Under the pieces are notes generated by a model. The model did not search any database. It saw nothing but the letters and a program-made list of their open reading frames with translations, and was not told where the DNA came from. Source: Planctomycetota bacterium (GTDB lineage: Bacteria > Planctomycetota > PLA2 > JAEUHO01). Taken from it: DNA of 64,000 nucleotides. The first letter of the stretch is position 1, and every line of letters begins with the position of its first letter. Positions 35,875-41,725 of this stretch are shown here, piece by piece. The translations under genes and the position numbers were made by a program. Location: NCBI GenBank assembly GCA_965222115.1, contig CBDCTJ010000003.1, positions 160,001-224,000 of the forward strand. The letters run 5' to 3'.

Positions 35875-36368
35875 GTGTCAACCTCCATAAGTGCCGCGGG
35901 ATCGTAGTAAGCAGGGACAGTCGGCACAATCTCACTCATGAGCCATGATTCGCGTGAGAGCGAACTCTTCGACCGATTCAACCGAATTTGGCATTCTTGT
36001 GTCGTCTATGCTCATACTTCGCAACATTCGCAGGTCGATGTTTAGAGATTTGAGCGTACGAATTGCTTACGAGGAAAGTCGCTCGACTTAGATCGTAGTC
36101 GCGCGTTGGCGCTCGAATGTGCATTGACGACGTGTTCGCACCCAAGCGATAGGATTCTGTGCCGCGTTTTTGTCACCCAATTGGTGACTCTTGACCCGCA
36201 CGCATTCGAGCGCGTTATGGATACCGAGATGGAATGAAAGGGTCAGTACTGCTTATCCGGCGTGTACGGGCGAAAGAACGGTTCTGTACCGAATTCTGAA
36301 CCATCCACCCGACGCACCAAAGCACAAATCCGCCACCCGGCCAACGCCGCGTGCTGTGGGGCACGCTC

Positions 36369-36641
36369 CTAGCCTCCTGAAATGGCCTGGACAATAAGGA
36401 TTTCGTCCCCGTCGCTGAGCGTGTGTTCGCCGAACGTGGCGCGAGGCAGGACTCGTCCATTGAGTGCACACAGCACGTGAGGACGAAGCGCGCCCTTGCC
36501 TTCCAAGATGTGGGCTCGAAGTCGTGGCAGCATCGCACACGCTGCCTCGAGTCCTTCTCCGACCGTTTTGCCTTCTACGCGCACGCGATCGGCCCCGACG
36601 GCAACTTTAAGCACTGAAGGGAGCCGAAGGGTCGCGCTCAA
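36369..36641 (-). CDS. ThiS/MoaD-family ubiquitin-like protein (about 90 aa)
   Basis: LRLPSVL, EGKTVGE.L, LRPHV, LSDGDEILIVQAISGG with C-terminal GG. TTG start overlaps the upstream TGA (TTGA). Confidence 0.92.
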   Translation of the reverse strand: MSATLRLPSVLKVAVGADRVRVEGKTVGEGLEAACAMLPRLRAHILEGKGALRPHVLCALNGRVLPRATFGEHTLSDGDEILIVQAISGG

Positions 36642-37759
36642 GACACGACTGCCACAGTTACAGAGAGAATGCCGGGCAGGTGCTGCGCGATGATGCTCCA
36701 ACTCACGCCGCCGTCGTTGCTGGCAAAGAGCGAACCACCTTGCGTACCGAAGTAGACACCGCAGGGATCGAGTGTGTCATTCGTTAGGGCTTGGCGAAGC
36801 ACGCTCACATGCGCATGCCGCCGGGGTAATCCGCGGTTGCGCTTGCGCCACTTCTTTCTTCGACCGTACTCGTAGATCGCCAACTCGCCGTCCGTGGCGC
36901 GAAAGCTATAGTCCACATGGGCAAGGGGGATCACGAAGCAGGAATGCGGGTCTTGCGCATGCAACGCGAGCCCGAATCCAAAGTCCGATGGGAGACCGCC
37001 GTCGATGCGCTCCCAGCCCTCCCCCGCATCGATCGACTTGTAAACGCCTACGTGATTTTGCTGGTAGAGAAGACCCGGAACCTCCGGGTGCGCGAGCAGC
37101 TTATGCACTCAAGTGAATACTTCGCTCTGCTCCGGCGCGCCGACGTAGCTGGCGACGCAGCTATTGATGGGCTTCCACGTGGTACCACCGTCGTCTGAGC
37201 GAAACGCTCCCGCAGCAGAAATAGCCGCGTACATGCGAGCCGAATCGCCAGCGTCAAACTGGATGCTGTGCAGGCACTGTCCGCCCGCCCCAGGCGTCCA
37301 GTCCTTACGCGTCTTGTGCTTGTTAAGACCGTCCACCGGCTCCCACGTCTTCCCGCGATCCTCGCTGCGGAAAAGTCCAGCGGGTGCGGTGCCCATGTAG
37401 AGCACGCTCCTTTGCTTGGCCGGGCCTGGCGTGATGTTCCATATCTTCGGCGACGCATCGAGCCCGAATTGCTTAGCAAACTTTGACGCCTTCGGATTGA
37501 GCTTCGGAAACGTGGGCAGACGCTCGGCTGCCTTGAATTTCAAAGTGCGTAGCGGCGCGGACTGCACTGTTACACCGAACGCGTAGTGCGACGCACCCGC
37601 ATGAAGTTTTGGTGCACCGCGTGTATCGATCACCGCGTAGGGAACCTGCCAACCCCGTAGCAGTGGCTCGGAAACGCTCCACCGCTTACGTCCGACGCCT
37701 CCCTCGACAAGAAACAGTCCGCGCTTTGTGCCGACCGATAGGATTACACGTCGTGCCAT
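36638..37759 (-). CDS. BNR/sialidase-like beta-propeller protein, 373 aa if the TGA at codon 217 is read through (candidate selenoprotein)
   Basis: GGAGG RBS and ATG 37759. Asp-box motifs SEDRGKTW, SDDGGTTW, SIDAGEGW and SNDGGVSW lie on both sides of the in-frame TGA at 37109-37111. Confidence 0.85.
37073..37089 (-). promoter_or_regulatory. Putative bacterial SECIS hairpin
   Basis: ACCCGGA-GGT-TCCGGGT is a perfect 7-bp stem with a G-first apical loop, 26 nt after the in-frame TGA. Confidence 0.6.
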
Positions 37760-37975
37760 GGATGACCTCCGGGTGTAGGCGATTCCCGCCCACCGATGTC
37801 TACGCGGTAACTTTACCACGTGGCCCAATTCGGTTGGAAGCCGCACAATTGTGCCCGCTTCCTATTCACGCAGAGTTAACCAACACAACCACATCAACGT
37901 TCACGTCCGCGCGCACGGCCTCGCTTGGCGATCTTGGCGCCCTTGGTGAGCCCCTTCTTCTTCCAAGATGTACCG

Positions 37976-40900
37976 CTACCTAATGTCGACCCGAAGCGTG
38001 CAGCGTGCGACACGGCCTTCGGCAATCACCAGAGGTTGCTCGACGACATGCGCCGGTGACCCATCGACGCGCACTCGAACGGTGTAGGGACCGGGTCGCA
38101 GATCGGGAATAACAAGCGAACCATCTTCGGTGAGCCGCCTCGTTCGCTTGCCTACCGAGGCATCGGAGACTTCAGGTAAGTGAACGAGCGGTAGCGATTC
38201 GCCCCGTTGAAAGAGCGATACTTCGGCACCGCGCAGCACATGCCCGGCGCTGTCCTCAATGCGCACGTGCGCCGATCCCGATGGCACGAGCGTAAGTTTG
38301 ACCGTAGAAAGTCGGCCGGATCGCACGGGAATTAGCGACGACATCGCCCGGCCATAACCCTGCGCATGGACGCGCACGCACGCGCTTCCAATGGCCACGC
38401 CTTCGAGCAAGAGTTTGCCGTCCATGCCGGTGGTGAGCGTGGAGCGGTGCAAAGGATGTCCATCGGCATCGTGAATCACAACCGTCGCATCCGGCACGCT
38501 CTGTTTCGATTTGTCGATGGCCCACACCTCAATGCGTCCACCGTGGCTGAAGCGAAGATCCATGGAAATCGTATGACCGGCTTTGTCGCTCTGCATATTG
38601 TCGGCGAGTAGCGGTGGCCATCCCTCGGCTCGAACTTCCACGTTGTAGCGTCCGTAGGGAACGCCCGCAATTCGAAAGCGACCCAACGCATCACTGCGCC
38701 CGCGGGCTTCAAAGACAGGGCCGTCATAGCTCTTGGACGCTTTGTTGCCCATCCATGTCGCAATGACGTCGGCCTCCAACACGGGATCGCCAAAGGCGTC
38801 AACCACCGTGCCTTCAAGCAACGCGTCATACACTTCGAGCTCCACCTCGACGTCTTGTCCCTCGTTAAGTTGAACGACGTGCTCTACTTGCATCGCGGCG
38901 TCGGTCTGGCGCAGGCGATAACGACCGGGTGGAATGCCACGAACCGAAAAGCGTCCGTACTCGTCACTTCGCAGTGCGTGACGGCGGAAATAGGCCGACG
39001 CACCTACGTCGGTAAGTAGCAACTCAAGCGATACGCCCGCCGCACCCTCGCCCCCGTCGCGACGAATGATGCCCGACAGGTGCGTATCACTGGAATCGCG
39101 AAAGGTAACTTCGCTGCGCTTCTCATTGGCCACATCCACGAGCACCGTCTGATCGGCGGGCACCTCGATGCCACGTACACGGCGAAACAGTCGGTAGGAA
39201 CCGGGTTGCAATCCGTCGAGCTCTGCGATGCCCTGCTCCGACGTCACCATGCGCCATGTGGGACCCACATCGTCCGATCGAGTAACCGCAATCATCGCGC
39301 CATCGACCGGCTCCCCATTGCTTGCTTCGGCGCGAACCACAATCGTACCGCCGTTGGTCATGTTGATCGGGGGCAACACGAGCACTTCGTTGGGAGGGAG
39401 CCGCACAATTTGTGTATGCACGCCACCATCGGGCGTGACCACCGTAAGCCGCCAAAGACCGGAAGCGATCTCGTCGTAGGCAAACGCGCCGTTGTCGCGC
39501 GTGGTCGTGACGCGTTTGCACCCCGGCCCATAACGCGCCATGCCGGGACCCTGTAGGCGCTCGGCTTGAATGCGCGCGCCAAACACGGGCTTTCCGTCGG
39601 CGTCAAATACGGAACCCGCAAGGCGCGAGATGGGCATGAGCGTGAGCGAGACGCCGTCCACATTGTCGGTTTTCACCAACACGCTTTGAACATCGCTGTC
39701 GCGCAGGCCCTGCACGGCACGCAACTCGTACCGACCCGGGGGAACGTCTTCGATCGTAAAGCTAATGCTCGACCCTTCGTCTTCCGTGGGATAGGTCCCG
39801 ACCTCGCGAAACGAATAGACATCCTCTTTGGCGTTGTACACGCTGGCGTAAAGCGAGACATGAATGCGTTCGTCGCGGTCGCTATCTTCGACGCGGCCCG
39901 AAATGGACACAACAGGCGGGATCACCAAATCAATGGCGGATTCAATGCCGGGCATAACCTGATCGCGCTGCGCCAACACGTGACTCGACTGCTCACCTCG
40001 TCCCAAGACTTCAAACACCAACGGGTCGGATGGGAGTCCGTCCATTTGAAATGTGCCGTCTTGACGGGATTGAATGACCTTGGTGAAGTCACTGCGATGC
40101 GCACGCGCTCGTACCGAGTAGGCGTTACGTACGGGCCCGGTAAGACGACGCACCGCGCCAGAGATCTCGTGAAGTCGAGTTAGCGTGGCCTCCACATCCC
40201 GCACTGTTCCCGACGAAGGAAAGAACTCTTTGCCACGCGCGAGTTGGTAGCCGGGCGCGGAAATGGTCCAAACCACATCGTCTTCCGGCATGTGCGCAAT
40301 GACCGCAAGCCCCTCGGCGTCAGTCGTCGCAGTCAACCTCGGCATGAATTCGGTGTCCCAGATCGAGAAGGCCTCCTTGGCCATGGGATGGGCTGTCACT
40401 TTGGCGTCGGGAACCGGTTTTCCATGAATGTCGCGCGTCTTCACGCGCAGTGACCACGCCGGCTTGACGGCGATATCCCCCACGTCGTTGGCGCCGCCCG
40501 GTGTGACATCCAGAAGCTTGTCGAGCACCGGCATGATCGCGTCGCTCACCAGCAAAATGCGATAGTCGGATGCCGGAGTAACGCCATTGATTTCGAACTG
40601 CCCGTTCTCATCGCTCATTACAGGTTGTGGCACCGCAATTCGGCTTCGCGCGTTGGACGAGTTTGGCGGACGCACCAGCGAAACCGTGACGCCTGCCACC
40701 GGTTTCTCATCGGACCAAATCACACGACCGCGCACCGTCGTTCGTCGTCGCGCAAACCAAAGCTCGCGTTCGTTGACGCGAATGTCATCCACCTGCACAA
40801 GTGTATGGGGATCGGCCAATGTCCACAGGGGATCGGCCATCTCGACGCGATACACACCCGGTTGCAATCCCGTAAAGAGAAAGCGCCCCTTGTCGTCAAC

Positions 40901-41725
40901 AACAGTTTCAAGCGGCGCTTCGTCTTCAAGCGCCGACTCGTCTTCTGTGGGTGTGCGAGTGAGCCGCTTTGCAACCGCACCGCCCTCACCCCGGGGTAGC
41001 GGCGTCAATCGAACGCGCGCACCTACGGCGTAGACTTCGCCGTGCGCATCCGCATCCATCACGCGACCGCGCAGTTCGATGCCCTGTCGCAGCGTAATTC
41101 CCTTGGCCTCACCGCCCGATTCCGCGCGTCCCAGATACTGCAACCGCCCTGTAGGCGTCCTCAGGAGCAATGAGTAAATCCCTGGGGCGAGATGATCAAA
41201 TGCGTAGCTGCCATCGTCGCTACTCGTCGCGACGGAAGCCAAGTCGCCCTTGTCGGAGGGCAATGCATAGACGACAGGCCGCGCCTTCTTCGTGGCACCC
41301 AACAGCTTGACCGTGCCGTGCAAGCGCTTGCCTTCAAGCAATCGCAATGTGACCGTCGTCATCGTCGTATCGCTTGGCACACGAACGGATGCATGGCCGG
41401 GTGCCCACACGACATAGTCGCCAGGGATTTGTCCTGACGGCTTCTTGGCTGCGAGGTAGTCCTCGATCATGCCGTCTTTATTGCTATGGGCACGAACGTC
41501 GCGACGCGGATCAAAGAGTGGTAGGTGATGCACGTGCTCTGTGACCCAACTCACGCGGGCACCCTGGAATGGACGTCCGGTCTTACCCAAGACCTGAATG
41601 CGCGCGGGCCAACTCGCTTTGGGCGTCGCGTCTTCTTTGGCAACGGATTGCGATTCAGTAACAAGCACCGCGCTACAAACAAGCAGCGTTGACATCAACA
41701 ACGTGGCGCCAAACCTCATCGTCAT
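37976..41725 (-). CDS. Large secreted protein with multiple carboxypeptidase-regulatory-like (transthyretin-like) repeats
   Basis: Signal peptide; recurring GRV.D..G.PV.GA.V and TD..G.F...GL.PG.Y motifs. Confidence 0.88.
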   Translation of the reverse strand: MTMRFGATLLMSTLLVCSAVLVTESQSVAKEDATPKASWPARIQVLGKTGRPFQGARVSWVTEHVHHLPLFDPRRDVRAHSNKDGMIEDYLAAKKPSGQIPGDYVVWAPGHASVRVPSDTTMTTVTLRLLEGKRLHGTVKLLGATKKARPVVYALPSDKGDLASVATSSDDGSYAFDHLAPGIYSLLLRTPTGRLQYLGRAESGGEAKGITLRQGIELRGRVMDADAHGEVYAVGARVRLTPLPRGEGGAVAKRLTRTPTEDESALEDEAPLETVVDDKGRFLFTGLQPGVYRVEMADPLWTLADPHTLVQVDDIRVNERELWFARRRTTVRGRVIWSDEKPVAGVTVSLVRPPNSSNARSRIAVPQPVMSDENGQFEINGVTPASDYRILLVSDAIMPVLDKLLDVTPGGANDVGDIAVKPAWSLRVKTRDIHGKPVPDAKVTAHPMAKEAFSIWDTEFMPRLTATTDAEGLAVIAHMPEDDVVWTISAPGYQLARGKEFFPSSGTVRDVEATLTRLHEISGAVRRLTGPVRNAYSVRARAHRSDFTKVIQSRQDGTFQMDGLPSDPLVFEVLGRGEQSSHVLAQRDQVMPGIESAIDLVIPPVVSISGRVEDSDRDERIHVSLYASVYNAKEDVYSFREVGTYPTEDEGSSISFTIEDVPPGRYELRAVQGLRDSDVQSVLVKTDNVDGVSLTLMPISRLAGSVFDADGKPVFGARIQAERLQGPGMARYGPGCKRVTTTRDNGAFAYDEIASGLWRLTVVTPDGGVHTQIVRLPPNEVLVLPPINMTNGGTIVVRAEASNGEPVDGAMIAVTRSDDVGPTWRMVTSEQGIAELDGLQPGSYRLFRRVRGIEVPADQTVLVDVANEKRSEVTFRDSSDTHLSGIIRRDGGEGAAGVSLELLLTDVGASAYFRRHALRSDEYGRFSVRGIPPGRYRLRQTDAAMQVEHVVQLNEGQDVEVELEVYDALLEGTVVDAFGDPVLEADVIATWMGNKASKSYDGPVFEARGRSDALGRFRIAGVPYGRYNVEVRAEGWPPLLADNMQSDKAGHTISMDLRFSHGGRIEVWAIDKSKQSVPDATVVIHDADGHPLHRSTLTTGMDGKLLLEGVAIGSACVRVHAQGYGRAMSSLIPVRSGRLSTVKLTLVPSGSAHVRIEDSAGHVLRGAEVSLFQRGESLPLVHLPEVSDASVGKRTRRLTEDGSLVIPDLRPGPYTVRVRVDGSPAHVVEQPLVIAEGRVARCTLRVDIR

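Follow-up and report, generated by a model that had tools for sequence, protein, structure and literature searches.

We analyzed a window of 64,000 nucleotides (the whole stretch studied here) from a Planctomycetota bacterium (assembly GCA_965222115.1, contig CBDCTJ010000003.1, positions 160,001 to 224,000 of the forward strand), in which two adjacent open reading frames (ORFs) on the minus strand appear to be the halves of a single beta-propeller gene separated by an in-frame TGA, and are followed by a gene for a small carrier protein of the ThiS/MoaD type. Comparison of this locus with its relatives indicates that the propeller is very probably a genuine selenoprotein, with the TGA specifying selenocysteine (Sec) at residue 217, and we consider it highly likely that the best overall explanation of the locus is a Sec-recoded propeller enzyme working with the neighboring carrier. 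The relevant features are:

36638..37759, minus strand: propeller gene read through the internal TGA; 373 codons and a TGA stop, encoding a seven-bladed Asp-box beta-propeller
37109..37111, minus strand: internal TGA, the proposed Sec217, directly before the innermost strand of blade 5
37073..37089, minus strand: hairpin resembling a Sec insertion sequence (SECIS), with a 7-bp stem (ACCCGGA/UCCGGGU) and the loop GGU, present in the minimum-energy fold
36369..36641, minus strand: ThiS/MoaD-like carrier gene, 90 residues, ending in ISGG; its TTG start overlaps the propeller stop (TTGA)
37766..37770, minus strand: Shine-Dalgarno-like GGAGG, 6 nt 5' of the ATG at 37759

The split propeller gene and its public annotation

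The minus-strand frame that runs from the ATG at 37759 to the stop TGA at 36640..36638 has a sole internal stop, the TGA at 37111..37109, which lies in the context EVFT-TGA-VHKLL. Two Asp-box motifs are found on each side of it (SEDRGKTW and SDDGGTTW 5' of the TGA; SIDAGEGW and SNDGGVSW 3' of it), and the product matches the Pfam models for Sortilin-Vps10 (6e-10) and BNR repeats. Inspection of the letters upstream of codon 218, the GTG that directly follows the TGA, revealed no Shine-Dalgarno-like sequence, while GGAGG or a close variant (GGGAG, GAGGAG) stands shortly 5' of the ATG in the window and in most of the nine other upstream regions that were compared (the region upstream of the L056 ATG has no GGAGG-like sequence). 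Thus, the first-pass annotation, which had read the two ORFs as one frame broken only by TGA, with Asp-box blades on both sides, no ribosome-binding site before the internal GTG and a perfect hairpin with a G-first loop 26 nt further 3', described these features correctly, the hairpin lying at 37089..37073. Moreover, codon 218 is GTA or GTT, neither of them a start codon, in two of the nine Sec forms described below, which argues against a translational restart at this position.

Public databases often carry the protein in truncated form. Among the best 120 clusters at 90% identity, 67 are proteins of 212-228 residues that span residues 1-216, and all six aligned proteins from the ~216-residue clusters end in T216; three such proteins are named by NCBI as 'WD40/YVTN/BNR-like repeat-containing protein' or 'hypothetical protein'. 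The remainder of the frame is also represented, by a 155-residue product that begins at residue 218 (P0248). The ~216-residue records imply that public annotation takes the TGA as a stop.

Recurrence of the in-frame TGA and its pairing with cysteine

A six-frame search of 61 genomes (that of the window and 60 relatives) recovered the closest orthologs in five genomes of other genera, at 64-69% identity, each with one TGA at the same column (GT-U-VHKLL). Three more Sec forms came from scanning species-representative genomes and metagenomes (L053, L056 and L133, of which the metagenomes supplied L133 only), giving nine in total: that of the window and L025-L029, L053, L056 and L133, which come from metagenome-assembled genomes (MAGs) of Planctomycetota and are 61-76% identical. 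None of the nine has any further stop. Across 110 aligned loci column 217 is occupied by Cys in 85, Asp in 14, TGA in 8, TAA in 2 (one contig counted twice, L024 being the same as L055) and Asn in 1. Likewise, Cys occupies this column in all 20 full-length database homologs at 47-73% identity, and the nearest Cys form (L054) is 72% identical to the window propeller. Among the eight full-length Sec forms the ratio of nonsynonymous to synonymous substitution rates (dN/dS) has a median of 0.186 over codons 1-216 and of 0.178 over codons 218-372, showing that the frame is under purifying selection on both sides of the TGA.

The TGA itself is covered without differences by contigs of the runs X1, X2 and X3, which represent two samples of one study, X1 being possibly the source of the window itself. 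These results bear out the earlier expectations that the TGA and hairpin would recur in several independent genomes, that most homologs would have Cys at the TGA column and that the codon would be found in sequencing data, and together with the Sec machinery described below they support the proposed 373-residue protein with Sec217.

A SECIS-like hairpin downstream of the TGA

The stem of the hairpin begins 19 nt past the UGA and the first G of its loop lies 26 nt past it. A stem-loop is found at the equivalent place in all nine Sec forms, the other eight having a 9-bp stem (GCACCCGGC/GCCGGGUGU) and the loop GGC, as against 7 bp and GGU in the window. Over the nine sequences 96.3% of the stem cells are paired, versus 33-54% with the partners slid. 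The window has A-U where the top pair of the stem is otherwise C-G, which involves an Ala to Glu and an Ala to Val replacement (one compensatory pair), and two other pairs switch from C-G to U-G.

Conservation at the nucleotide level is also concentrated here. At conserved residues the pairwise identity of third positions averages 0.70 over codons 218-231 versus 0.52 elsewhere, and the eight best of 179 14-codon windows by synonymous-site identity, the highest values in the gene, all begin at codons 217-225. In the Cys form L054 the stem has mismatches and the hairpin is missing from the minimum-energy fold.

The window contains two copies of an 11-mer, CACCCGGAGGT (37765..37775 and 37080..37090, minus strand; 0.02 copies expected), one over the Shine-Dalgarno region of the propeller gene and one as the 5' arm and loop of the hairpin. 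The 11-mer is not kept upstream of the orthologs, and we rejected this repeat as a chance occurrence. A promoter and terminator scan of 36000..38100 gave nothing above shuffled sequences.

Selenocysteine machinery

The genome from which the window comes (7 contigs, 90% complete) encodes a tRNA-Sec (71.6 bits versus a cut-off of 47; recognized by ARAGORN as tRNA-SeC with the anticodon TCA in a search of the genome contigs). Profile searches of the genome also recovered selA (480.7 bits), selB (346.6 bits) and selD (150.6 bits, with the Sec-type GGUAAK motif), all over their cut-offs. Of the components that had been named for checking, tRNA-Sec, selA and selB are thus present, whereas selD is broken in the assembly, a point that we take up below. 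Of the other TGA-bearing genomes, all four that were examined have a tRNA-Sec over the cut-off along with selB and selD; among relatives selB and selD were found in five out of five, with selD carrying a single TGA in four of these. Formate dehydrogenase is the usual Sec user. The alpha subunit of this enzyme in the present genome (FdhA; G000:C7:452777-454882, L213) has no in-frame stop, and is therefore not its Sec user.

Fold and conserved residues of the propeller

An AlphaFold (AF2) model of the 373-residue read-through product, built on a 90-sequence alignment, is a single closed seven-bladed propeller (predicted local distance difference test score, pLDDT, 94.6; predicted template modeling score, pTM, 0.93). 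The family to which it belongs is large and spans many phyla, with 25,822 representatives recovered at E-values up to 0.001 and 375 at up to 1e-30. The best match by both sequence and structure is Reut_B4987 of Ralstonia eutropha JMP134 (PDB: 3B7F; phmmer E-value 1.2e-61 over residues 5-368; Foldseek template modeling score, TM, 0.89 at 34% identity), a structural genomics entry entitled 'putative glycosyl hydrolase with BNR repeats'. In the available part of a survey of Asp-box propellers (PMC2716378) it is listed with seven blades and its function as 'Not known'. The two proteins share the same full-length sequence family and fold, and differ in that 3B7F, which is no selenoprotein, has D-P-H in place of C/U-V-H and K-M-H in place of C-L-H. 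The folds that follow at much lower similarity are halves of GH74 enzymes, DAIP, Ycf48 and sortilin. None of the NCBIfam models reaches its cut-off for the window propeller (the F510_1955 glycosylhydrolase model scores 60.3 bits versus 175).

Examination of the sequence conservation patterns over the 90 sequences revealed invariant H164 and R322, with H219, Q234 and H236 kept in at least 90%. In the strand order of the AF2 model residues 162 and 217 each come directly before the first strand of a blade, and residue 236 between the second and third strands. In a propeller of the usual topology, these residues would share one face at the channel mouth. The motif parallel to U-V-H that had been noticed in the preceding blade is indeed there (C162-L-H164-S). 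This first C-x-H is not conserved, however: many Cys forms carry Ala or Ser in place of C162, and the Asp clade carries Lys, such that only position 217, H164, H219 and H236 are kept.

The same genome has a second, stop-free propeller paralog with 31% identity (G000:C7:1119363-1120400).

The adjoining ThiS/MoaD-like carrier

The carrier gene that follows the propeller was described in the first-pass annotation as overlapping the propeller stop and as encoding a protein ending in ISGG, and both statements are accurate for the 90-residue ORF with its TTGA overlap. Its product matches the Pfam ThiS model (PF02597; E-value 5.7e-10, 40 bits versus a cut-off of 22.5) and remains under the NCBIfam cut-offs for SAMP1 (41.9 versus 60), thiS (37.1 versus 37.45) and moaD_arch (33.2 versus 49.5). 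In 94 of the 110 loci a ThiS-like ORF is found no more than ~250 nt from the propeller gene and on its strand (82 downstream and 12 upstream), and one adjoins the propeller in eight out of eight Sec forms, in agreement with the earlier statement that propeller and ThiS/MoaD pairs are widespread and that homologs have a CVH motif. R53, G89 and G90 are invariant in these carriers, with the terminal GG seen in all 71 partners. We also identified natural fusions in which the ThiS domain precedes the propeller (P0161, P0172, P0274 and P0275).

Co-folding of the pair, which had likewise been proposed, was run on a Cys ortholog (P0003) with its own carrier and gave 0.49, the best of three controls reaching 0.00; between runs no less than 93% of the contacts are shared, and the partner has a pLDDT of 88 or more. 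Of 80 solved complexes 58 reached the mark of the tool, as did 2 of 110 mismatched pairs, and those passing at 0.60 or under were 7 of the 80 solved complexes plus both of the passing mismatches. The value obtained is rated as weak support for the pairing and, with it, for the sulfur-transfer or conjugation role proposed earlier, which stays inferential. Taking these observations together, we regard a functional partnership of the propeller and the carrier as likely.

Clustering of neighboring gene products over 54 loci yielded no third recurring gene. Four loci encode a MoeA-like protein at up to ~4 kb from the propeller (L065, L071 and L082, from a subclade without carriers that is described below, and L120, which keeps its carrier). 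The other genes near the pair in the window code for a CarboxypepD_reg repeat protein, TsaE, an extracytoplasmic function (ECF) sigma factor and a carbamoyltransferase, and offer no functional clue. The first of these (37976..41725, minus strand) lies directly upstream of the propeller gene and encodes 1249 residues with at least seven CarboxypepD_reg-like repeats; the ORF upstream of the L054 ortholog is likewise large (1436 residues).

A model for the propeller-carrier pair and its alternatives

In the model that we favor the two annotated ORFs constitute one gene, whose product would be a cytoplasmic seven-bladed Asp-box propeller of 373 residues. UGA217 would be decoded as Sec by means of tRNA-Sec, SelA, SelB and SelD and of the SECIS element 19 nt downstream within the coding sequence, and Sec217 would stand in for the Cys that is kept in most of this large, many-phyla family. 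Judging by the fold topology, it would open the innermost strand of blade 5 and sit at the channel mouth. The adjoining propeller and carrier genes would be translationally coupled and their products would work together: the GG tail of the carrier may be adenylated and thiocarboxylated by an activating enzyme (E1) encoded elsewhere, and the activated tail would then dock at the site of residue 217. There Sec or Cys217, aided by H219, might act as the reactive chalcogen, either accepting sulfur to give a selenosulfide or persulfide, or forming an acyl-seleno(thio) intermediate, with the sulfur subsequently handed to a further substrate in a manner resembling the use that MoaE, ThiG and CysM make of their own carriers. 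Insertion of Sec at UGA217, docking of the carrier tail and the chemistry are each inferred steps in this scheme. The role of residue 217 as nucleophile or sulfur relay is put forward tentatively. More speculative still is a specific version in which the propeller would be an E2-like or sulfur-relay catalyst unrelated to known E2 enzymes, MoaE, ThiG or CysM, with the GG terminus loaded onto Sec/Cys217 as an acyl-selenoester or acyl-(seleno)sulfide and with Cys upgraded to Sec for reactivity in the Planctomycetota clade.

Several observations weigh against this model, some of them touching the recoding and others the proposed chemistry. The 86-nt region of the hairpin is no more stable than its shuffles (z -0.92; 39 of 200 as good), its covariation is matched by 58 of 500 shuffles in a control, and an Rfam scan of 36300..37900 with E-values up to 10 recovered no SECIS or other credible family. 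Furthermore, the codons of the stem specify a conserved HPxxPG peptide, and part of the conservation of the stem is thus at the protein level. The case for Sec accordingly rests on the recurrence of the TGA across genomes, its pairing with Cys and the conservation 3' of the TGA, and not on the hairpin or covariation statistics alone.

In the assembly of the window the frame matched by selD is interrupted by five TGA codons and one TAA, and its comparison with an intact relative shows well-matching blocks alternating with out-of-frame blocks. This gene sits close to a contig end, in the final 1.2 kb of C1, and selA runs off C1 and continues at the beginning of C7 (loci L019 and L009; C1:654443-655426 and C7:4-1329), implying that these two contigs abut; we suspect that the broken selD is likely an assembly error.

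A further ortholog (G039, L024 = L055; 68% identity) reads TAA at column 217 and has another TAA in place of Tyr121, with the hairpin intact. Its genome (82% complete) has selB and a selD with one TGA, while no tRNA-Sec is over the cut-off. We considered this TAA as a loss of the Sec trait and rejected this given the presence of selB and the TGA-bearing selD; the ortholog is either a recent pseudogene or affected by sequencing errors.

With respect to the chemistry, Asp occupies column 217 in the 14 loci mentioned above, which form a clade that includes 3B7F, and the carrier is still kept there, which argues against an obligatory nucleophile at this position. In addition, no gene for an E1, a JAMM protease or a sulfurtransferase is adjacent in the window or recurs in the 54 loci, the genome not having been searched for ThiF/MoeB. 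Of the 16 loci out of 110 that are devoid of a ThiS-like ORF three have too little flanking sequence, and the 13 with adequate flanks come mostly from a Gemmatimonadota-type subclade with the signature QCVHxLRLHP and Ala at 162 (L057, L058, L060, L061, L065, L068, L069, L071, L082, L095 and L121).

Family propellers fused to kinases also keep C-V-H. In P0141 the propeller lies behind a Ser/Thr protein kinase domain, and in P0189 (539 residues), which likewise keeps C-V-H, it follows an N-terminal extension with no Pfam domain; position 162 in these two proteins is Ala or Phe. Clusters with the kinase fusion in the Atlas are mostly from Acidobacteriota. Together, the Asp clade with its carriers, the subclade without them and the C-V-H of the kinase fusions allow for more than one chemistry. 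Finally, residue 217 would be near H164, H219, Q234, H236 and R322 at the mouth of the central channel as judged from the topology of the model.

Other functions for residue 217 were also considered. A serious rival accepts Sec217 as real and makes it a metal ligand, in a mononuclear site with H164, H219 and H236 at the channel mouth that would act on the carrier thiocarboxylate or a small substrate. Exchange of Cys and Asp is typical for metal ligands, and Sec is itself one in [NiFeSe] hydrogenases and formate dehydrogenases; the alternation of Cys (85), Asp (14) and Sec (8) among the 110 loci while the His residues stay, one of them invariant and the other two in at least 90% of the 90 sequences, fits such a site. 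As no metal is predicted and one locus has Asn at this column, we see it as possible, if rather unlikely. It is less likely, and in our view improbable, that the propeller is a binding or sensing module that holds the carrier tail or another peptide, with Cys/Sec217 as a redox- or sulfane-sensitive switch. The solved complexes of related folds with peptides (Ycf48 with D1, sortilin with PGRN, and DAIP with a thermolysin fragment) and the kinase-fused family members that keep C-V-H (P0141) speak for a role of this kind. However, the invariant His, Gln and Arg residues form a ring that is more like an active site, and known selenoproteins use Sec catalytically or as a metal ligand (PMC9312934, available part).

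We also weighed the possibility that the TGA is a true stop, the locus then encoding a split propeller (216 and 156 residues) or being a pseudogene or a sequencing error. The 216-residue proteins and the product beginning at residue 218 (P0248) in public records, as well as the GTG that directly follows the TGA in the window, speak for such a stop. Nevertheless, the position of the stop is in each case that of the conserved Cys, selection is equal on the two halves by the dN/dS values given above, two of the nine Sec forms have GTA or GTT at codon 218, and a Shine-Dalgarno sequence precedes the ATG and not the internal GTG. Moreover, the TGA is identical in the contigs of two samples and recurs in eight other sequences, and the genome keeps tRNA-Sec, selA and selB. 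A true stop is therefore very improbable.

Implications

Dozens of public records cut the protein at residue 216 or split its halves into two genes, and a family model that permits U at column 217 would mend them. Few features that can be read from sequence only point to a reactive residue; a Sec/Cys pair is among them, and in this case it points to the channel mouth of a propeller family with a solved structure and no known function. The likely active site would thereby be pinned down and the orphan module of propeller and GG-ended carrier would become a testable hypothesis. If true, the model would also add a selenoprotein with a non-thioredoxin fold, and a second selenium link to carriers of the ThiS/MoaD type beside the Sec-containing MoeB.

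Comparison with known systems

Asp-box repeats and a propeller architecture are common to the window propeller and to the GH33 sialidases and GH74 xyloglucanases. GH74 chains match it with E-values of ~1e-11, TM scores of 0.55-0.64 and 13-18% identity (profile E-values 1e-18 to 1e-12). Unlike these glycoside hydrolases, it consists of one seven-bladed propeller, its sequence shows no signal peptide, its conserved site is rich in His and Cys, and its gene is linked to that of a cytoplasmic carrier.

With bacterial selenoprotein genes the locus shares the UGA/Cys pair, the hairpin with a G-first loop, tRNA-Sec, SelA and SelB. Most known selenoprotein families are thioredoxin-like, according to the available part of a 2022 review (PMC9312934), whereas the window protein has a beta-propeller fold and no CxxU/UxxC redox motif. 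Families of the BNR, Asp-box, sialidase or propeller type were not found in the 87-family Table 1 of that review, in its available part. BNR, sialidase, propeller, photosystem and glycosyl hydrolase proteins are likewise not mentioned in the main texts of PMC9312934 (available part), PMC12013277, PMC13326102, PMC13188914, PMC2398784 and bioRxiv 10.1101/2022.07.06.499078, their supplements, BSepDB and the groundwater-MAG study cited in PMC13188914 being outside this scope. The propeller thus apparently represents an undescribed selenoprotein family that uses conventional recoding machinery, though a prior listing is possible.

The gene pair is reminiscent of MoaD-MoaE, ThiS-ThiG and CysO-CysM, in which a small GG-ended beta-grasp protein is likewise encoded beside its partner and sometimes fused to it; the available part of PMC4326299 describes a comparable carrier fusion, MoaX of M. 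tuberculosis. The window differs from these systems in that the partner is a propeller unrelated to MoaE, ThiG and CysM, and in that no E1 adjoins the pair; a BNR or sialidase partner is not mentioned in two surveys of prokaryotic ubiquitin-like proteins. MoeB/ThiF, the E1 of ThiS/MoaD carriers, is listed as a selenoprotein family in the available part of PMC9312934. By this published listing, the Sec-containing MoeB/ThiF has Sec in a protein that handles the activated C-terminus of the carrier, as we propose for the window propeller, although the two differ in their fold and in the step of the pathway at which they would act.

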